Positions 1 through 9,252 of a stretch of DNA of 64,000 nucleotides are shown piece by piece. The translations under genes and the position numbers were made by a program. The stretch is taken from NCBI GenBank assembly GCA_964347045.1, contig CAYFXC010000002.1:116285-180284 (forward strand), written 5' to 3'. The notes beneath the pieces are model-generated. The model was not told the origin of the DNA and did no database searches. It saw nothing but the letters and a program-made list of their open reading frames with translations. Origin of the DNA: an uncultured archaeon. Its GTDB lineage: Archaea > Asgardarchaeota > Hermodarchaeia > Hermodarchaeales > Hermodarchaeaceae. Numbering within the stretch: the stretch's first letter is position 1; the number at the start of each line of letters is the position of its first letter.

Positions 1-136
1 AAAAAAAATCCGCCGGGTCTTCATCGTTCCTTCCCCTCCATTTTGGCACTTCCCGGTCCAAGTTTGTATGGGTGGCATTGGACCTTTTTGGACAACGGAT
101 CCGGAGTTGTTGTCCGGTTACCGTGAAGACCCGGCG
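1..136 (-). ncRNA. Structured 3' element of unit B followed by an oligo-U tract (candidate 3' UTR structure/terminator)
   Basis: Perfect 13-bp inverted repeat CGCCGGGTCTTCA (11-23)/TGAAGACCCGGCG (124-136) encloses hairpins GGTCCAA/TTGGACC (55-84) and GGACAAC/GTTGTCC (90-115). A8 at 1-8 reads U8 on the minus strand. Confidence 0.65.
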
Positions 137-198
137 TCAGTCAGCGTCCAAGGTCCGCGTCCCTGGTGTTGCAATGTCAATACCTGTTGTAAGCGTGA

Positions 199-342
199 TT
201 AGCGTCGTGAAGTGACGATGGCGAAGTTGATTCGATCGCGGGGGGTGCCTTTGGGGTTCTTTGCACCTGTCACAGCGCGTTCTGTGACCGGCATTTTGGG
301 AATGATATTTTTCTTGTGTCCGGTTTCTTTCTTATTGGTCAT
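199..342 (-). CDS. 47-aa basic microprotein B, MTNKKETGHKKNIIPKMPVTERAVTGAKNPKGTPRDRINFAIVTSRR (not in ORF track)
   Basis: Hand translation, ATG 342 to TAA 199. SD GGAAGGTGA 6 nt upstream. Clear homology to the ORF at 698-838. Confidence 0.8.
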   Translation of the reverse strand: MTNKKETGHKKNIIPKMPVTERAVTGAKNPKGTPRDRINFAIVTSRR

Positions 343-402
343 TTTCTATCACCTTCCTGACGATGCAGGTCAAGTGTGTATAACCCTTAGATTGCCTATT
401 AT

Positions 403-484
403 TCGATGGGAGCTTGTCGGTGCAAAAATCCGACAAAATAATGAGAGTTGAACCATCTTTTGCACTAGTTAGTGCAAAATTTAG
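403..484 (-). promoter_or_regulatory. Conserved upstream motif block of unit B, including perfect palindrome TTTTGCACTA-GT-TAGTGCAAAA (458-479)
   Basis: Motifs recur at equivalent spacing upstream of unit A. IR TTGTCGG/CCGACAA (414-436) around loop TGCAAAAAT. Confidence 0.6.
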
Positions 485-519
485 ATTGGTAACGGTTTTA
501 GTTCGAGAAGGGGGTAAAC

Positions 520-700
520 CGGGTCCGCAGAAGCTCCAGGCCAAAGGAGTCAGAAGGGTAGTAGGTCCGTTGCCGGATCGCTGCTACGCCGATCACCCGA
601 CAACGGATGGAGGCGATTGGTGCTTGTGCAGACCCGAGATATTAGGCTGAGAGGAGGACCGGATGGCTTTGTAGTCACCATGGGGATTCCTCACAGTCTA
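520..700 (-). ncRNA. Structured 3' element of unit A
   Basis: Closing stem 520-529/627-636 (minus: CGGGUCUGCA/UGCGGACCCG, one U-G). Inner stem TCCGTTG/CAACGGA (566-607). Stem 643-700 begins at the stop codon. Confidence 0.6.
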
Positions 701-838
701 GCGTCGACTAAGGACCAGCATAACTGCGTACCGAGTGCGTGGTTTTGCAATCGGATGGGGGTTGCGGCAGCCAGCGATAGCTCGTTCAGAAGCCGACATT
801 TCAGCGATTTTCTTGTGTTTATACTTGGATTTGGCCAT
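698..838 (-). CDS. 46-aa basic microprotein A, MAKSKYKHKKIAEMSASERAIAGCRNPHPIAKPRTRYAVMLVLSRR
   Basis: C-terminal part of track ORF 698..1000. ATG 838 has SD GGAGGGA 7 nt upstream. Homologous to 199-342. Confidence 0.8.
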   Translation of the reverse strand: MAKSKYKHKKIAEMSASERAIAGCRNPHPIAKPRTRYAVMLVLSRR

Positions 839-924: not shown

Positions 925-1007
925 TCGATGGGAGCCAAGAAGTGCAAATCTTCTCGAAAGAAACCTGTGAAAGATAGTTTTTTTGAACCACATTATGCAA
1001 AATTTAG
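925..1007 (-). promoter_or_regulatory. Conserved upstream motif block of unit A
   Basis: TCGATGGGAGC (925-935), IR AGAAG/CTTCT around TGCAAAT (938-954), TGCAAAATTTAG (996-1007). Confidence 0.6.
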
Positions 1008-1136: not shown

Positions 1137-1661
1137 TTGATGATCAAGCAAGAAATGGAGCCGATGGCGGGAATACAGGCGTTACCGGCATTTCCGGTGG
1201 TTCTCGTTACTGTGCAGGATAACGTGATGACAGCGGCAGCATTTCATTTCTTTTCTTTTAACCCGCCGAGTGTGATGGTGGGAATTCGTCCACAGGCGCA
1301 TACATTTAAACTAATTTTAAAGAGTCGTGAATTTGGAATTAATTTACCTCAGAAGGAGCAAATTGATGTGGTTCGAGTTTGTGGTTCAGTGTCAGCGAGA
1401 GATGAAGATAAGTTCCAAAAAACAGGGTTGACACCAATGAAAGGAACAGTTATTAATAGCGTGTTGGTGGCAGACTGTCCGGTAAATTTGGAGTGTCGAG
1501 TGGTTCATGAGGTTCAGTTTGAGGGAAGCCATCGGTGGTTTGTGGGAGAAGTTGTTGCAGCCCATATTGCGGAGGATTATTCTAAAGATACAATGCTAAT
1601 GTATTGGGCTCGTGAATATCGTCGTGTTGGGGATGTGTTATTGAGTGTGAAACGCCGTTAA
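1137..1661 (+). CDS. Flavin reductase-like FMN-binding split-barrel protein
   Basis: PVVLVT...SFNPP..., EFGINLP, CPVNLECRV, GSHRWFVGEV motifs. Confidence 0.9.
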   Translation: MMIKQEMEPMAGIQALPAFPVVLVTVQDNVMTAAAFHFFSFNPPSVMVGIRPQAHTFKLILKSREFGINLPQKEQIDVVRVCGSVSARDEDKFQKTGLTPMKGTVINSVLVADCPVNLECRVVHEVQFEGSHRWFVGEVVAAHIAEDYSKDTMLMYWAREYRRVGDVLLSVKRR

Positions 1662-1736
1662 TGTGAATTAGTGAATGGAGAGAACTTTTCTTTGAAAGAA
1701 GTGTGGTGAAGGTGGAAATTAGGATTTGATTATACT

Positions 1737-2174
1737 ATGAATCCACTACAGGTGTTTCCTTTCAAGAACATGCCTAAAATGGTCGATTTAATCGCTGAAG
1801 GCGAAGTAGGTGTAGGCGCTGTTCGGTCTGCGACAGGTATGTGTGGGTTTGATTCCACTGAGGTTTCTGATATGTTAGCGTATTTGACTAGTTTTGGCCG
1901 AGTGGAAACGAAGGAAAATGGGTGGATAATCCTAAGGGCGGAAGAGGAAGCAGTATATGGGCGGTTTCGGAAGGCGTATCTGAAAGCGCCGATAGCTATT
2001 CTGTCTAATTTGTCTGAAGAAGTGAAATCGGTTGAACAGCTATCACAGGAAACGGGTCTATCAGTGGAGACTGTTGATCTGTATTTGCCGTTCTTAGTTG
2101 AGATTACGCGGCTAGGTGTAATTAGTCGATGTGCAACTGAGTATCCGGTGATTTGGTGCCAAAAATCAAAGTAA
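1737..2174 (+). CDS. Hypothetical protein, probable tandem winged-helix domains
   Basis: Two HTH-like segments (VGAVRSATGM...MLAYLTSFGRV; SVEQLSQETGLSVETVDLYL). Confidence 0.6.
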   Translation: MNPLQVFPFKNMPKMVDLIAEGEVGVGAVRSATGMCGFDSTEVSDMLAYLTSFGRVETKENGWIILRAEEEAVYGRFRKAYLKAPIAILSNLSEEVKSVEQLSQETGLSVETVDLYLPFLVEITRLGVISRCATEYPVIWCQKSK

Positions 2175-2469
2175 CTGATCGAGTTGTGATAGGATTTCTC
2201 TCGCTTTACCAGAAAGGTGAATATCTGTCCCGATTGTGAGCAGTGTTGTTTCGACGTTTACTTCGAGGATTTGCTCCTCGTGTTGCCTGATAATAAGAGG
2301 AAATATGACGACAGGTTTGACAGTTGCAGAGGATTACACAGGGAGAGTATCTGCTGGTTGGAGTTTAGCAAACACTTGATCCATGATTTCAAAAGGAAGG
2401 CTTTAACCGAACCTGAAAACTTTGAAAAAATGAATGTTTTTTATCTTTTAAAGCACCTAAGATTTTGCC

Positions 2470-2838
2470 ATGACGCGCGTAGTTCATTTTGAAATCGCTG
2501 TCGATAGCCCGGATCGAGCAATCAAATTCTATCAGTCAGTTTTTGGTTGGAAAATTGAGAAATGGGAAGGTCCAGTGGATTACTGGATGGCCGTCACTGG
2601 TGAAGAAGGTGTACCTGGAATTGATGGTGCCTTTCAACTTCGATCGGATGCTCCACAACCCATTATCAACATTATTAGTACTTCCAATGTCGATCAAACG
2701 GTTAATCAAATCGTGAAAGCAAATGGTTCAATTCTTCGCCCAAAAATGGCTGTCCCTGGAGTTGGCTGGGCGGCATATGCCAAGGATACAGAAGGGAACG
2801 TTTTCGGGTTGATGCAAAGCGATCCAGAAGCAAAATAG
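2470..2838 (+). CDS. VOC/glyoxalase family protein
   Basis: VVHFEI...RAIKFYQSVFGW...PGVGWAAYAKDTEGNVFGL. Confidence 0.92.
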   Translation: MTRVVHFEIAVDSPDRAIKFYQSVFGWKIEKWEGPVDYWMAVTGEEGVPGIDGAFQLRSDAPQPIINIISTSNVDQTVNQIVKANGSILRPKMAVPGVGWAAYAKDTEGNVFGLMQSDPEAK

Positions 2839-2909
2839 AATAGTTTAGGAATTCCAAGAGAAAGCGTTAAAGCTCCTGACTAGTTGCTCAACCTTCCAAT
2901 AATTGGAAT

Positions 2910-4514
2910 TCATTGCACCCGCCATCGTCGAATGAATATCCAGAGTATTAAAGCCATTATTATTAGAATACCAAGAGTTAGGATGAGTGGAGCTAGCCAG
3001 GGGTTGAATAGAGTTGGTGGCACTAATGTTATTGTGACAGTGATTATGTTGCTCCAAGGGCTAAAGAGATTGTTATTGTCTCGTGCTCGGACTCGAAAAT
3101 TGTAAGTTCCAGGGGGATGATTAGAAAGAAGTAAGCTTGTGGTGTTGACGTTCCATGTTCTATCGGGAATGTGGAAAAATGGAGTGGTATCCATTTGTAT
3201 TTCATAGATATCGATTGTACCGTCAGCATCTAATGCATTCGTCCATGATAGGATGAGAGACCCATAAGGATTGAGGATAGTTGGTTCTAGTAATTCCACG
3301 GGTCCGGGACTCGTTTCGCCATTGTTGCCAATTTTCACAAGAAAGCCATTTGTTGATTCGGTAAGCCAACCAGAGGTAATTCCTGAAAAATAGTGACCAT
3401 TATTTCCGCTGGCGAATCCGAAAGGTTGGCAACTTCCTGTTCCCCCCCAAGATCTTTCCCAGTTGAGTGCCCCTGTGACATTATAGTTGAGAAGATTTAC
3501 TCGGTATCCAGCGTCAGGATCCTCATATTCACTTCCCACATAGATGTTATCTTCAGTGGCGAAAAGGTCGATTCCTTCATGATTTAATCCGGTGTTTTTG
3601 ATTTCTTCCCAAAGCAAGATGCTGGTGCTATTGTATTTCCGCAAGAAGAGCTCACCGGTACTGCTGGAACTGAAAGATTGAGTGGAGCCGGTAACATACA
3701 CACTATCATTGTAGACATTTACAGCACGGGCAAGATCTTTCAGAGCTCCACCCCATGTTACATTCCAAATTAGGATACCAGTTGGGGAGAATTTGGCAAG
3801 AAATGCATTGTTGTCTGAACCGTCCCATAAATTTCCATAATCACCAACTAGATATACACCATCCGAACCAACAGCAATACCATACCCGCGGTCAACAGGG
3901 GCCAAGTCCCAGAGTTCAGACCAAACTTCATTTCCATCAAAATCAAATTTCGCGATCAGTGCATCAGCATCATCGAGTTGAGATCTCTGTATAATTCCAC
4001 CAACATAAACACCATCGATTCCTATCCCAATGCTTGTAAACCATTCACTCGGAGAATTCCCGAATGAGACATTCCAGAGTTGATTACCATTGAAGTCTAA
4101 TTTTACGAGCAAGCCATTTGTTCCAAAAAGACCACTAGTGGTCTTCCCAGCAAGATAGACCGCATCCATGGAGGTTGTTAAAGCAGAGGCAGCTTCATCA
4201 TATGGAGCTTTCCAAGTCTGATTCCACAGGAGTTCCCCTTCGACAGAATATTTAAGCAAGAGTATGTTTTGCTTCATATCTTCTAGGTCCTGTGTGGTCC
4301 CCGCTACATAGATGCCACCAGTGCCAGAAGCGACAGAAGAGAAGTTATCGTTTTGTGTTCGCATCCAAAGTAGGCTCCATGGGTCGTTTGGGTCTAAAGG
4401 TGATGCGAGAATGCTAATCGGTGGTTGTTCGGCAAAATATGATGAAGTCGTTAACACTAGCACTAGGAGGAAAATGATTAGAAAGGCTACACCCCGTGGT
4501 TTCAAGGATACCAA
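2910..4514 (-). CDS. Secreted/membrane-anchored beta-propeller protein with FN3-like domain and C-terminal TM helix
   Basis: N-terminal hydrophobic signal. About 7 repeats of YVxG...LxKxxxxGxxxWxxxW. LSWT...YEIQ...YNFRVRARD...SPWS. C-terminal TM with RRWR tail. Confidence 0.85.
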   Translation of the reverse strand: MVSLKPRGVAFLIIFLLVLVLTTSSYFAEQPPISILASPLDPNDPWSLLWMRTQNDNFSSVASGTGGIYVAGTTQDLEDMKQNILLLKYSVEGELLWNQTWKAPYDEAASALTTSMDAVYLAGKTTSGLFGTNGLLVKLDFNGNQLWNVSFGNSPSEWFTSIGIGIDGVYVGGIIQRSQLDDADALIAKFDFDGNEVWSELWDLAPVDRGYGIAVGSDGVYLVGDYGNLWDGSDNNAFLAKFSPTGILIWNVTWGGALKDLARAVNVYNDSVYVTGSTQSFSSSSTGELFLRKYNSTSILLWEEIKNTGLNHEGIDLFATEDNIYVGSEYEDPDAGYRVNLLNYNVTGALNWERSWGGTGSCQPFGFASGNNGHYFSGITSGWLTESTNGFLVKIGNNGETSPGPVELLEPTILNPYGSLILSWTNALDADGTIDIYEIQMDTTPFFHIPDRTWNVNTTSLLLSNHPPGTYNFRVRARDNNNLFSPWSNIITVTITLVPPTLFNPWLAPLILTLGILIIMALILWIFIRRWRVQ

Positions 4515-4586
4515 GACCTTTTTCGAATAGTCGATAATCCAGTGATTCGTGTATATGAGGCTTCGTTTCAGGGCAGAATTTATGGT

Positions 4587-5030
4587 TTAGAGATTTTTGA
4601 GGGCATTATGTATTTTTTTGGCCTGGGCTTGCATTTCTTCGGTTGGTGGTGTTGTTCCATAATCAGGCCCTGCTTGGATACGCAATCCGTCACCTTCGAA
4701 TCGTGGAATAACATGGATGTGTATATGGGGGATTTCTTGAAATGCCGCCTTCCCATCAGCAAGCCAGACGTTAATCCCTTCACAGCGTATTCCGGATTTG
4801 CGGAGTGCCGCAGCGATGCGTCCTGCTATTTGGAAAAGGCGGCCACTCAGCTTTGGATCCAGCGCCCCTAAGCTAGCGACGTGGCCCTTAGGAATAACGA
4901 GAGTATGACCAGGATTAATTGGTCGAATGTCAAGAAATGCAATGATTTCGTCGTTTTCATAGACTATGCTAGCAGGCAATTTTTTTGCAATGATGTTACA
5001 GAAGATACAATCAGTTGAGGATTTACTCAT
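4587..5030 (-). CDS. HIT family hydrolase
   Basis: CIFC, PINPGHTLVIPK, HIHIHVIPR triad. Confidence 0.95.
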   Translation of the reverse strand: MSKSSTDCIFCNIIAKKLPASIVYENDEIIAFLDIRPINPGHTLVIPKGHVASLGALDPKLSGRLFQIAGRIAAALRKSGIRCEGINVWLADGKAAFQEIPHIHIHVIPRFEGDGLRIQAGPDYGTTPPTEEMQAQAKKIHNALKNL

Positions 5031-5549
5031 AACTGTGTCTTGGTGCTAACCTTTGATAAATGCCTTTGTGCCAGACGTGTTGGTTAAACTATTTATTATC
5101 TCTGGCTTGGTTCAAGAGAGAGTAGATTTGTTCATCGTTGAAAATTATCTCGTCTTTAACTTTGCATTCCTTGATACAAAGGAGAATTACTTGAGTGTGA
5201 TCTCTCCTACGCTGCCTTGGTTTTCGATTAATTCTTCATATGTAGCCACTGAACTATCAGGAAAAACGAAGCTTATAAGAGTGATTTCATCTGTCCTCGG
5301 AAATTCGGCAAGTCGAAGCAATTAATTTACCCATCTCTCTCGGACATCGCTGGGAGTAACAACGGCGTCTGGAGCCCCAGTTTCGCCCATAATAATTTTG
5401 CCTTATTCAGAAAGTCGCTGATTTCAATATGATTGAATGCTATTATCTTATTGTTTTTCTGATGATTTCTTAGTTGCGTGTGAATCTGCGAAAACTATTT
5501 GTGGAATCTGCTCTGACAGGGTGTCAGATTTGTGTTTGGTGTATTATCG

Positions 5550-7382
5550 ATGAAAGGCTGGACTGGAAAGCTATTACGTGTCAACCTAGCGACTAAGGAA
5601 GTAACCCCGGAAGTGTACTCCAAGGATTTTGCCTGGCAATTTGTGGGTGGTCGAGGATTTGCTGTGAAAATCCTATGGGATGAGGTACCTCGGGGGACCG
5701 ACCCGTTATCACCAGGGAACAAATTCATTGCAGCCGTTGGCCCACTTTCGGGACTCTCAATGCCCAATGTTGGAAAAACGGTTGTGGCATCAAAAAGCCC
5801 ACTGACAGGCATCTATGGTGACGGAAATATCGGTTCACACTTTGGTTCACAACTCCGTCGATCTGGTTATGATCTTGTTGTAGTTGAAGGAAAAGCAGAG
5901 AACCCTGTTTATGTTTTAATTGAAGATTCCGATGTTAATATTCTCGATGCAGGTCAATTATGGGGTAAAGGAGCATTCGAAGCGGAACAGAAACTAGAAG
6001 ATATCCATGGTAAGAACATCGGCACTCTCATAATTGGTCAGGGTGGCGAAAATCTTGTTAAGTATGCCATTGTCCGCTCCATGATGGGACGTGCAGGTGG
6101 TCGCCCAGGAATAGGAGCAGTGATGGGTTCAAAGAAGCTGAAAGCTTTGGTAGCAAGGGGAAGTACCAGCCCTAAGATTGAAGACATTCAAACGTTTCGT
6201 CAACTTGGTCGAGATGGTTTCAAAGATATTCGTGAAAAACCAAGTTACGACGAATGGATGACCCAAGGTACCATGTTAATTCATGCGTGGTGTCAGGAGT
6301 TTAGTATTCTCCCCAGCTATAATTTCAAGGAAGGGCAATTTGAGCATGCTGAAGCCCTGAGCGGAGACACGATGGAAACCATGAAAGAAAAAACTCGAGG
6401 ATGCCCTCATTGCACGATGCAGTGTGGTCATTCTATCAAAGATTCAGAAGGCAAACCTGCGGAGCTGGATTATGAGAATGTAGCATTGCTTGGCTCTAAT
6501 ATTGGATTGCGAGACCTACGTGAAGTGGCTACACTGAATCGGTTAGCAGACGAATTTGGGCTTGACACTATTTCACTTGGAAATACCATTGGTTTTGCAA
6601 TGGAAGCATCAGAAAAGGGGATAATTGATGAAAAGTTAGATTGGGGAGACTTTCAAGCCACAAAGCAGTTGATTTCAGATATCGCTTTTCGTAGAGGTTC
6701 CCTCGGACCCTTGCTTGCTGAGGGAACTCGGAATTACGCTTCGAAACTAGGCAAAGAAGCAATGGACTTTGCAATGCAAATTAAAGGATTAGAAATTTCA
6801 GGATACGACTGTCACGCAGCCCCAGGTATGGCTCTGTCATTCGGTGTCAGTTCTATTGGAGCACATCACAAGGAAAGTTGGATTATCACCTATGAAGTTG
6901 ATGTAGGTCGTGAATCCTACGATGAAAGTAAAGTAGACAAAATCATTGAATTACAACGGATTCGTGGCGGAATGTTTGAACAACTTGTTGGTTGTCGATT
7001 TCCCTGGATAGAATTGGGATTTAATCTTGAATGGTATCCAAAATATTTTGCAGCTGCCACTGGATTAAAATGGACCCTCGATGATTTTTGGGTTGTTGCA
7101 GATCGTATCTATTCTCTAGTTCGAGCATATGGAGTACGTGAATTTAATGGTGAGTGGGATCGCTCAATGGATTATCCACCTACTCGTTGGTTTAAGGAGC
7201 CCTTATCGTGTGGCCCGCTAGCCGGAATGAAACTTGACAAAGACGGTTATGAGAAAATGCTTTCTTGGTATTATCAAAAGCGAGGTTGGGATGAACGAGG
7301 AATCCCCACGAAGAAACGACTATCTGACCAAGGATTAGCTTGGATTATCCCTGAGCTTGAAGAAGTCACTACACTATCGTGA
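5550..7382 (+). CDS. aor: Tungsten-dependent aldehyde:ferredoxin oxidoreductase family protein
   Basis: GWTGKLLRVNL, KSPLTG, GAVMGSKKLKA, CPHCTMQCG, YYQKRGWD. Start refined to ATG 5550. Confidence 0.93.
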   Translation: MKGWTGKLLRVNLATKEVTPEVYSKDFAWQFVGGRGFAVKILWDEVPRGTDPLSPGNKFIAAVGPLSGLSMPNVGKTVVASKSPLTGIYGDGNIGSHFGSQLRRSGYDLVVVEGKAENPVYVLIEDSDVNILDAGQLWGKGAFEAEQKLEDIHGKNIGTLIIGQGGENLVKYAIVRSMMGRAGGRPGIGAVMGSKKLKALVARGSTSPKIEDIQTFRQLGRDGFKDIREKPSYDEWMTQGTMLIHAWCQEFSILPSYNFKEGQFEHAEALSGDTMETMKEKTRGCPHCTMQCGHSIKDSEGKPAELDYENVALLGSNIGLRDLREVATLNRLADEFGLDTISLGNTIGFAMEASEKGIIDEKLDWGDFQATKQLISDIAFRRGSLGPLLAEGTRNYASKLGKEAMDFAMQIKGLEISGYDCHAAPGMALSFGVSSIGAHHKESWIITYEVDVGRESYDESKVDKIIELQRIRGGMFEQLVGCRFPWIELGFNLEWYPKYFAAATGLKWTLDDFWVVADRIYSLVRAYGVREFNGEWDRSMDYPPTRWFKEPLSCGPLAGMKLDKDGYEKMLSWYYQKRGWDERGIPTKKRLSDQGLAWIIPELEEVTTLS

Positions 7383-7406
7383 TTTCATAATAATTGAAAC
7401 CAAATG

Positions 7407-7964
7407 CTAGTCGGTTTTGTCAGTAAAACTGATGCGAAAAACACAGTTTGCATTCCCTTGCAATCTCCCTTCGGTTTGAGTGACTCGAGCAATATATGGA
7501 ACCTTCAGATACTCAATCCAATGTTGAAGTAGTCCTTCAAGCATTCCAGAAACCAATTCACAATAGCGTAAATCCAATTCGGCTTCGAAGGTATCCTGCG
7601 AGCAGATGGGACAAGAATTTGTTCGAATAAATAGCGTGCGATCGTCGGTGAATTCCATAGAATCAGGCGGATTTCCTGTGGCTAGTTCCCAATTACGTGC
7701 GAGATATTCGTCAACCCGATTTAGGAAAAGATCTGGAGAATTAGGAAAGAAATCTTTTTTTGGTTCTCCATAGCGACTTACAAGCCCTAATAACAAAGGG
7801 GTAGTCATGGTTTTTCCGAGTGCGTGAAGCGCGCGTTCAATAGCTGTAGGATTACCAGCATGTTCGACGGATAGCACTTCCACTAATCGGAGATAGAAAA
7901 TCGATAATAGTGGTCCTGAGAAGAGAGGCGGTTTGTCTGGCGGCTCGGCTTCGTCGGAGGTCAT
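7407..7964 (-). CDS. V4R (TRAPP/Bet3-related fold) domain protein
   Basis: CPIC...YCELVSGMLEG...C pattern typical of V4R. Confidence 0.7.
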   Translation of the reverse strand: MTSDEAEPPDKPPLFSGPLLSIFYLRLVEVLSVEHAGNPTAIERALHALGKTMTTPLLLGLVSRYGEPKKDFFPNSPDLFLNRVDEYLARNWELATGNPPDSMEFTDDRTLFIRTNSCPICSQDTFEAELDLRYCELVSGMLEGLLQHWIEYLKVPYIARVTQTEGRLQGNANCVFRISFTDKTD

Positions 7965-8007
7965 ATCAATTTCATCCTATTATTTTCTTGACCTAGATTT
8001 TTAGAAT

Positions 8008-9252
8008 TTAATTGTCTTCTTCTGATTGCTTTTCTTCTGAAGCAGATTTAGTTGGTTTTCCTTTACCGGCTGCTTTCACACGTTCTCGCCGAGATTCCTT
8101 TGCAGGAGCACGTTCACGTAGTTGGCGTTCTGCTTCCGCTAAAGGACCTGGGGGAATTGTTGCAGGCAATGTCGGTGCTTGCCCAGTCAATTCAGCAATT
8201 TCAACTGATTTTTCAGCCCAGAGAACTTGTGCAGGATGTACGCCTGCGACTCGCCAGTAGAAGAAGCGGTCCCAGAGCTTTTCCTCAATTGAAAGGACTC
8301 CAGCTGATAGAGAGACGAGGTTCAGTCCAAGTCGATTAAATGCTTTTGCAACAACTTTGCGGACCTGATCACGGATTTCGGCTTCATCTCGTAATGCGCT
8401 CATAAATTCGTGTTCGGAGAACTGATCTCGCATCACGTTATCGATTAGGGTTTTTAAATATTCAACGAGTTCCTGTGAGTTCATTGGGATGCGTTGCTCA
8501 TGGAGTGTTGTGATAAGTTCACGGGGATCATCTACAACAAAGGCGAAGAGAAGCCCATAGGGCTCTTGGAGTCGGATTGACCGTTGATAGATGGTTTTCT
8601 CCTCTTTACCCAATCCAGTTTTAACTGGAATATCAAATTCTTCTCGACGCCAAGATTTTCCTGTCCATGTAAGTCGAGCAAGATCCGATGTTTGAGTAAC
8701 ACCCGTATTAGCGTAAACGTGAACTCGACCGGTGTAAATATAGACGATATTGGCTTTGAAACCTTGACCACGCCATCCCGTTTTAATCAACGGAGAAGGA
8801 AAGGTTTCAATTGAATATGGGGTTTCGCTAGGCTCCCAGACTTCATACACTTTGAATTCCCGATTGCCATTGTTAAATTCTTCACCATATGCACAACAGA
8901 TCCAATCGGGAGGCACGTATATCTTCGCGTCTTTTTCTAAAATTTCGATTTGTTCCATATCCCGCTCAAGGTCAGGAGGATGATAGATAAATTGAGGTAG
9001 TCTAGCATCAGATTCCTGTATTTCAATCCCAGTGGGGAGTGTTCGTGTCATGGTTTTCCCGGTGGAAAACCCACCGAAAGCCGCAATCCGTGTTAGCCGA
9101 CGAAATGCGCGGATTGCTTGGGCACCCCGATCCTTGTGGGGGGCTTGTATCATTTGAGTCCAATAGGTTTGTCCGCCGACATCACCAATAGGTATGCTAA
9201 ATTGAGGTCCAATTTGTGGATCTGGTGCCATTAAACAAATTGCTTTTGCCAC
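8008..9252 (-). CDS. SPFH/Band-7-like domain protein
   Basis: FVVDDPRELI...LKTLIDNVMRDQFS...IRDQVRKVVAKAFNRLGLNLVSLS resembles the SPFH core. Charged tail. SD GGAGG before GTG. Confidence 0.7.
   Translation of the reverse strand: MAKAICLMAPDPQIGPQFSIPIGDVGGQTYWTQMIQAPHKDRGAQAIRAFRRLTRIAAFGGFSTGKTMTRTLPTGIEIQESDARLPQFIYHPPDLERDMEQIEILEKDAKIYVPPDWICCAYGEEFNNGNREFKVYEVWEPSETPYSIETFPSPLIKTGWRGQGFKANIVYIYTGRVHVYANTGVTQTSDLARLTWTGKSWRREEFDIPVKTGLGKEEKTIYQRSIRLQEPYGLLFAFVVDDPRELITTLHEQRIPMNSQELVEYLKTLIDNVMRDQFSEHEFMSALRDEAEIRDQVRKVVAKAFNRLGLNLVSLSAGVLSIEEKLWDRFFYWRVAGVHPAQVLWAEKSVEIAELTGQAPTLPATIPPGPLAEAERQLRERAPAKESRRERVKAAGKGKPTKSASEEKQSEEDN

Follow-up and report, generated by a model that had tools for sequence, protein, structure and literature searches.

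The window, that is, the whole 64,000-nt stretch of DNA analysed here (positions 116,285-180,284 of contig CAYFXC010000002.1, from an Asgard archaeal MAG of 2.58 Mb in 83 contigs), carries within its first 1,000 bases two tandem minus-strand units, A and B, each of which contains a stem-closed sequence that could fold as RNA. The locus raises the question of whether these sequences are a genuine RNA element, on which strand such an RNA would lie, and what it would do for the small genes beside it. Asgard archaea are the closest prokaryotic relatives of eukaryotes, the biology of mRNA 3′ ends in archaea is poorly understood, and to our knowledge very few structured RNAs are known from the Asgard lineages.

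Two tandem microprotein genes and their 3′ regions

Both units share the same order of parts on the minus strand, namely an upstream block, a Shine-Dalgarno (SD) site, a basic ORF of 46-47 aa, a spacer of ~60 nt and a stem-closed element of ~125 nt. Microprotein gene A (698..838; 46 aa, MAKSKYKHKKIAEMSASERAIAGCRNPHPIAKPRTRYAVMLVLSRR, stop TAG) is preceded by the SD sequence UUGGAGGGAUU at ~844-854, and gene B (199..342; 47 aa, MTNKKETGHKKNIIPKMPVTERAVTGAKNPKGTPRDRINFAIVTSRR, stop TAA) by GGAAGGUGAU at ~348-357. Since a strong SD site is found at all of the ORFs, the microprotein ORFs are regarded as real genes; the homologous ORFs are uninterrupted and terminate with TAA or TAG, or with TGA in a few cases. 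The upstream control region of unit B (403..481, minus strand) consists of a GCUCCCAUCGA block at 403-413, repeated TTTGCAC half-sites, an AT-rich box and a palindrome, TTTTGCAC-N6-GTGCAAAA, at 458-479. Among 10 orthologs of unit B, the 20 nt just downstream of the block show an identity of 0.9. The upstream region of unit A (925..1004, minus strand) carries an identical GCUCCCAUCGA block at 925-935 together with TTTGCA sites. The two upstream regions look like a shared promoter or operator. A hairpin located before GCUCCCAUCGA has arms that differ between the units (UUGUCGG/CCGACAA and GAGAAG/CUUCUU), while its loop, AUUU(UU)GCAC, is kept.

The spacer that separates the stop codon of ORF B from its element (137..198, ~62 nt, minus strand) has a column identity of 0.68-0.70, contains indels and has no conserved fold; an extended ORF or readthrough past the microprotein stop was rejected on account of this lower conservation and the indels. 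Spacer A (641..697, minus strand) forms a nested hairpin, CUGUGAGG...CCUUGCAG with AUGGUGA...UCACCA inside, which is conserved in nine orthologs of the same type; at two positions of its stem, G.U pairs occur when it is read on the minus strand.

Beyond the spacers lie the two structured 3′-UTR elements, both of which were scored with R1, a covariance model built from the minus-strand sequences of 21 aligned elements. Element B (10..137, minus strand, ~126 nt; R1 108 bits, E 1e-20) is closed by a stem, P1, in which 136-124 pairs with 23-11, so that the DNA forms a perfect 13-bp inverted repeat (11-23/124-136). Two nucleotides past this closing stem is a run of eight U (1..8, minus strand; A8 on the plus strand). 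Oligo-U tracts are described as a termination signal in archaea (PMC8716108), and the U8 is likely to be such a signal and to mark the end of the transcript. Inside P1, the 10-mer AUCCGUUGUC (91..100, minus strand) precedes an inner hairpin, GGUCCAA...UUGGACC (55..84, minus strand), with an invariant UUGCCACCC in its loop, and the hairpin is followed on its 3′ side by the invariant stretches GGGAAGUGCC and UGGAGGGGAAGG (~26-54). An AUG preceded by an SD sequence inside element B was considered as a further start codon and rejected, being specific to this genome; the orthologs have UUG or CUG at that place, which is part of the 3′ strand of P1. Element A (516..640, minus strand, ~120 nt; R1 85.5 bits, E 1e-15) has a P1 of 11 bp with two G.U pairs (637-627 with 529-519). 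Its inner hairpin, P3 (567..606, minus strand), is made up of CCGUUGUCGG (606-597) paired with CCGGCAACGG (576-567) and is extended by GAUCG/CGAUC. The 10-mer AUCCGUUGUC recurs here at 608-599, where it is the 5′ strand of P3. Element A has no U run, and the promoter region of unit B comes next.

The pairing from which the preliminary description had started, CGGGUCUGCA (636-627) with UGCGGACCCG (529-520) in unit A and CGGGUCUUCA (133-124) with UGAAGACCCG (23-14) in unit B, is exact in letters and coordinates on the minus strand, and the two stems do differ in two pairs, of which one is altered in both of its bases (G-C to U-A) and the other in a single base (U.G to U-A). The shared 10-mer that it had pointed out likewise occurs in each unit (plus-strand GACAACGGAT at 91-100 and 599-608).

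Element types and their distribution

An alignment larger than that used for R1 comprises 30 unique elements; they fall into six subtypes and come from 15 genomes, all belonging to one genus. Most homologous ORFs are followed, ~50-70 nt past the stop codon, by a 10-17 bp stem with the core GGGYCUUC/GAAGRCCC that spans 116-137 nt. This closing stem, put at 12-16 bp for the domain as a whole, is G+C-rich and encloses 95-120 nt, which contain hairpins that are specific to each type and a few invariant stretches that are single-stranded, namely CCGUUGUC and, in the B type, also GCCACCC, GGGAAGUGCC and UGGAGGGG; a further word of the interior is GGACCGGGAAGTGCC. The A type (eight sequences) consists of P1, a short CUCCR/YGGAG helix and a long covarying hairpin, CCGUUGYYGG...CCRGCAACGG, extended by GAUCG/CGAUC. 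The B type (10 sequences) has a P1 of often 16-17 bp, the hairpin GGUCCA...UGGACC and three invariant stretches (AUCCGUUGUCC, UUGCCACCC and CCGGGAAGUGCC...UGGAGGGGAAGG). The G type contains P1, CCGUUGUC, a small hairpin and a covarying GCUGG/CCAGC or GCCGA/UCGGC hairpin around a C/U-rich loop. The 'multibranch' architecture proposed earlier thus applies to the interiors of the A and G types, with no more than partial support in the B type. Elements of the F type have a B-like interior within a diverged P1 that carries a tandem G.A mismatch. That is, the interior has been kept in spite of the diverged stem, and the constraint on it must be at least as strong as that on P1. The inner hairpin of the B type is kept in 11 of the 12 B- and F-type elements and is broken in the contig-13 paralog. 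The two F-type tracts L060 1501-1620 and L061 354-472 have the tandem G.A/G.A in the middle of the stem (GGGGGUUCAGGGG with CCCCUGAAAACCU), and the F-type P1 may be a sheared-pair or kink-type variant.

The 10-mer motif and CCGUUGUC, or near variants of them, occur in the A, B, F and G types, and the pairing partner of CCGUUGUC is not kept. The caution attached to the 10-mer in the preliminary description was well placed: it forms the 5′ strand of the covarying A-type hairpin and has no conserved partner in the B, F and G types. Because its structural role differs by type, the 10-mer is suggested to be read as sequence and not as part of one fixed helix.

R1 gave three strong matches and one weak match in the genome of origin and detected elements in all 15 genomes of the genus (this one and 14 relatives), with no element in the four genomes of the sister genus, the class comprising 19 genomes in all. 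Linkage to the ORFs was assessed by comparing R1 matches with protein matches, and ten further matches were inspected directly. For all ORF-strand R1 matches whose position relative to a protein match was determined, a microprotein match lies 48-220 nt upstream on the same strand, and each genome has 4-7 paralogous units of microprotein plus RNA.

The microprotein itself is distributed somewhat more widely. The protein profile matched in 17 of the 18 other genomes of the host's taxonomic family and gave no match in 22 genomes from 15 other families of the phylum. The protein family, found only in the host's Asgard class, amounts in public protein collections to 17 clusters at 90% identity and, in a set of 1.84 billion representatives, to 21 clusters at 50% identity; its members are annotated only as 'hypothetical protein', and the records of close relatives are labelled Candidatus Hermodarchaeota, Promethearchaeota or Thorarchaeota. 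Searches of Pfam, NCBIfam, PHROGs and PDB sequences assigned the microprotein to no family, and the ESM Atlas gave no usable match. In the sister genus (L012, L013 and L016), the gene is followed by an 11-bp GC hairpin, GCCGCCAGC/GCUGGCGGC, ~15-45 nt past the stop codon, then by a U run and a convergent gene. The presence of the protein gene with a plain hairpin and U run in the sister genus indicates that the ancestral arrangement was a 3′ hairpin with a U run after it.

Synteny of the flavin reductase that adjoins unit A extends to at least four other genomes, which argues that the locus is vertically inherited and not mobile. The neighbouring genes are of ordinary kinds. The flavin reductase gene lies at 1137-1661 of the window (plus strand; Pfam). 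Further along, at 5532-7382 (plus strand), is a gene for a tungsten-type aldehyde:ferredoxin oxidoreductase with AFOR_N and AFOR_C domains (Pfam).

Covariation and strand of the RNA element

Minimum free energies compared with dinucleotide shuffles gave z-scores of -2.5 and -3.6 for the minus strand and of -3.0 and -2.8 for the plus strand. These values lie modestly beyond the shuffles, and being moderate and similar on both strands, they mean that folding energy alone decides nothing. The matter is settled by the homologs. In the 21 aligned elements, 9 of the 15 pairs of P1 change on both sides and 90% of the cells are paired, versus 78% in shuffles; in the 30-element alignment, this holds for 10 of the 16 pairs, with 85% of the cells paired versus 73%. 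The covariation score of P1 was reached by none of 500 shuffles for either alignment, and P1 pairing in the 30 elements drops to ~50% when the partner strand is slid by one column. P1 carries at least three different sequences (UCUUCA/UGAAGA, CCUAC/GUAGG and CCUGCA/UGCGGG). Since the 15 MAGs that supplied the sequences are related and belong to a single genus, the covariation cells are not independent events. Within the A-type P3, compensatory changes were found at 5 of the 15 pairs. The interior fold of the B type is poorly defined, and the stretches of it that are most conserved never vary and hence show no covariation; an H-type pseudoknot between the GCCACCC of the P3 loop and the GGGAAGUGC that follows, both of which are invariant, is possible as a loop-to-flank pairing.

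Conservation along the unit follows the same boundaries. Among 10 B-type orthologs, column identity is 0.84-0.89 in the ORF, 0.68-0.70 in the spacer and 0.78-0.93 in the element, and it falls from ~0.87 to ~0.4 right after the U run. In a locus, it is the terminal unit whose element has an oligo-U run directly behind it. A run of U6-U8 is located within 5 nt of P1 in nine of the ten B-type copies, and weaker runs of U4-U8 follow the G, E and F types. After the P1 of the A and D types, the longest run is U3-U4, and the A-type copies precede the promoter region of the next unit.

The assignment of the RNA to a strand relies on the kind of mismatches that the stems tolerate. On the ORF strand, the mismatch cells of P1 comprise 24 G.U versus 8 A.C, most of the latter at the fraying outer end, and those of the A-type P3 comprise 18 G.U versus 2 A.C. 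The contig-13 paralog has two G.U pairs inside P1, at which the other strand would have mismatches. Together, the G.U excess, these contig-13 pairs and the U run on the ORF strand place the RNA on the minus strand. A functional RNA on the plus strand, antisense to the tail of the microprotein mRNA, would agree with the plus-strand z-scores, which match those of the minus strand, and with the spacer stem of unit B at 165-184, which has a G.U pair on the plus strand only. However, this stem is not conserved, the mismatch ratios of 24:8 and 18:2 and the U run all point to the minus strand, and R1 scores 85-110 bits on the minus strand as against 15-31 bits on the plus strand (a weak argument, R1 having been made from minus-strand sequences). 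We therefore consider an antisense RNA to be extremely improbable. The doubt about the strand in the preliminary description is thereby resolved in favour of the minus strand.

The same observations bear on whether the inverted repeat acts at the level of DNA, as the terminal inverted repeats of a miniature mobile element, as an attC-like site or as a palindromic protein-binding site. A perfect 13-bp inverted repeat around ~100 bp, the cassette-like appearance of the units and the nearly equal folding of the two strands are what such a feature would present. Against this, the placed copies sit at one position behind the microprotein ORFs in a syntenic neighbourhood, mismatches are biased by strand toward G.U, and the conservation of the interior is strand-specific and ends at the U run. 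Moreover, a search for the pattern CGGGYCTTCN{95,125}GAAGRCCCG in metagenome and viral contigs returned chance palindromes only, with none of the 160 tested loci passing R1, and no integrase or transposase was detected by Pfam in the six neighbouring ORFs (window 1137-9252). A DNA-level role is thus very unlikely. The core sites of integron attC, R′′ and R′, read RYYYAAC ... GTTRRRY at the ends of an imperfect palindrome; the stem core found here is CGGGYCUUC/GAAGRCCCG, with GTTRRRY at neither end, and attC was rejected. An assignment to MITEs was also rejected, given placed copies in 15 genomes behind microprotein ORFs, the syntenic flavin reductase and the 24 G.U against 8 A.C cells in P1.

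The element is therefore a conserved, strand-specific, structured 3′-UTR domain on the strand of the microprotein ORF, and the structured RNA that had been proposed is borne out by homolog covariation in both P1 and the A-type P3, its strand now being the minus strand. The cis-acting part of that proposal fits best, as all placed matches lie behind microprotein ORFs and conservation ends at the U run.

Relation to known RNAs and possible roles

Comparison with Rfam 15 (including ribozymes, riboswitches, C/D and H/ACA sRNAs, SECIS and Y RNA) gave no match at gathering score over the 64-kb window, and at E-values up to 10 within positions 1-1200 there were four chance-level matches only, none of them inside the elements. 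None of the three analyses by which the preliminary description had proposed to challenge the RNA, namely Rfam, homolog covariation and folding energy, thus speaks against it. The elements matched no ribozyme family, ARAGORN found no tRNA, tmRNA or tRNA-like gene in the window, and a literature search found no description of the motif. Several named kinds of RNA were rejected individually: an archaeal SECIS, as the microprotein ORFs have no in-frame UGA; a C/D box identity, for which there was no Rfam match; and an excised or circular archaeal RNA flanked by bulge-helix-bulge (BHB) motifs. The BHB motif consists of two 3-nt bulges around a 4-bp helix, and P1 is by inspection continuous, with at most 1-nt symmetric loops.

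The element is nearest to 3′-UTR-embedded small RNAs and to terminator-proximal hairpins. Small RNAs embedded in or derived from 3′ UTRs are known in bacteria, e.g. CpxQ, SroC and DapZ, with which the element shares a conserved structured mRNA end, a stem followed by a U run and possibly a single-stranded conserved stretch. It differs from them in its archaeal host, its larger size and the 100-nt interior inside the terminal stem, and there is no relation in sequence or in Rfam. As in intrinsic or oligo-U terminators, the B type has a G+C-rich stem directly before U6-U8, and the sister genus has a plain hairpin with a U run. This trait, a G+C-rich stem with an immediate U run, is present in nine of the ten B-type copies (U6-8), weaker in the G, E and F types and absent from the A and D types. 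Unlike an intrinsic terminator, though, the element has a 'loop' of ~100 nt that is conserved and partly folded, and the A and D types lack the U run; a short terminator hairpin with a small loop was rejected because the stem encloses 95-120 nt of conserved sequence. Termination in archaea is, besides, not hairpin-driven and needs no hairpin. The differences from these nearest kinds are thus the conserved 100-nt interior within the terminal stem, the archaeal host and the coupling to paralogous microproteins. By analogy only, the arrangement recalls the 3′ stem-loop of eukaryotic histone mRNAs, a hairpin of 6 bp with a 4-nt loop that is bound by SLBP: in both cases multi-copy genes for small basic proteins have mRNAs that end in a conserved structure and not in a generic tail, whereas the two structures resemble each other in neither sequence nor size nor architecture.

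The best reading of the element is a genus-restricted, cis-acting, 3′-terminal mRNA domain. We consider it fairly probable, from the sequence features described above, that three functions are packaged in this domain. That is, the U run would end transcription in the manner of other archaeal oligo-U tracts; the closing stem would lock the 3′ end in a helix and so shield the short mRNA from 3′-to-5′ decay; and the conserved interior would be bound by a trans factor that adjusts how stable the microprotein mRNA is or how it is translated. As the A and D types lack a U run, termination cannot be the whole function, and unit A, which has none, is probably read through into unit B. Likewise, a simple hairpin suffices in the sister genus, and the conserved interior of 100 nt must have another explanation. 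In view of the SD-like GGAG and anti-SD-like CUCC motifs, candidate factors are the basic microprotein itself and the ribosome.

The conserved interior could alternatively belong to a stable, trans-acting small RNA, either cut from the 3′ UTR or ending the transcript, in which CCGUUGUC would act as the base-pairing seed for other mRNAs. Stable small RNAs usually have the form seen here, a closed stem with a U tail; the interior equals the ORF in conservation; and CCGUUGUC or a near variant is kept in the A, B, F and G types without its partner. This motif, however, is buried in the covarying A-type hairpin, and the spacer has no promoter-like conserved block. Furthermore, an 8-mer is expected ~80 times by chance in 2.6 Mb, so that a target search is not meaningful. 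Such a small RNA seems unlikely.

A second alternative concerns the protein partner more closely, in that the element would be the binding site of the microprotein encoded upstream of it, forming a small RNP or an autoregulatory loop like those of ribosomal-protein mRNAs. The microprotein is very basic, and in an AF2 model a Lys-rich tail, predicted as disordered, precedes two short helices; placed elements are encoded together with the microprotein, in 4-7 paralogous units per genome. Yet confidence in the model is low (pLDDT 65), no RNA-binding family matched, the F-type units join an A-like protein to a B-like RNA interior, and in the sister genus the protein occurs and the element does not. 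The leader structures of ribosomal-protein mRNAs are described as autoregulatory and protein-binding (PMC7247131). The present element resembles them as a structured RNA beside a gene for a small basic protein, and differs from these leaders, which are 5′ and mimic rRNA sites, in its location in the 3′ UTR and in a microprotein that belongs to no known family. Binding by the cognate peptide is accordingly rated as improbable.

Returning to the cis-acting mRNA domain, a bolder version of it would see in gene and RNA tail a novel kind of module, complete in itself, of which one Asgard lineage would have built up 4-7 diverging copies in each genome. The module could be an RNP, in which the basic helical-hairpin peptide would bind the conserved interior of its own mRNA tail, or a translation toggle, in which the SD-like GGAGG and anti-SD-like CUCC of the 3′ domain would switch the translation of the short mRNA through the ribosome. 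We regard this as a rather doubtful, though conceivable, extension.

Whichever role applies, covariation supports an RNA family that Rfam lacks and that is strictly coupled to equally unannotated microproteins, with several paralogous pairs per genome. Entire modules of gene plus RNA in such genomes are evidently overlooked by gene callers and RNA libraries. A peptide of 47 aa and an RNA of 125 nt make up a small synthesizable system for the control of stability or translation by an archaeal mRNA tail. The family being narrow (one uncultured genus) and its function inferred, the general impact is moderate.

Several other copies in the same genome differ from units A and B. A scan of the whole genome for inverted repeats with a GGRYCY stem, which was too noisy at 165 matches, pointed to a fourth unit on contig 5, which R1 confirmed weakly. 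This unit (G000:C5:123130-123620; L036 1160-1640, plus strand) is bicistronic: an ORF of 45 aa (MSKKKINF...SRRGSKW) comes first and is followed by a second ORF of 26 aa (MAVNKKAHYQAHSKNNFVYTLVLVRR) with its own SD site, then by a 129-nt element with AUUCCGUUGUC and finally by U8. Five other genomes share the layout, and their second ORF always ends in a hydrophobic run plus RR; in G-type units generally, a second ORF of 26-29 aa lies between the microprotein ORF and the element. About 6 kb before the window, on the minus strand, is a distant paralog, MQTQIGRKLRLYANVARMSNAQRLFAGCRTNPRAGPRLEQALGLIIR (G000:C2:110126-110269), which the protein profile missed; the GCUCCCAUCGA block lies upstream of it as well, and its 3′ structure is of another kind and shorter. 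The copy at G000:C6:44772-44873 (L038) is a paralog that has decayed and contains in-frame stops; it is followed by scattered B-type words (CAUUGCCAC, GGGAAGAAGUGC and AUCCGUUGAC), and at a further copy ending in ...SRRGSKW (G000:C22:28151-28264; L037) two short hairpins and a U run are found in place of the large element.
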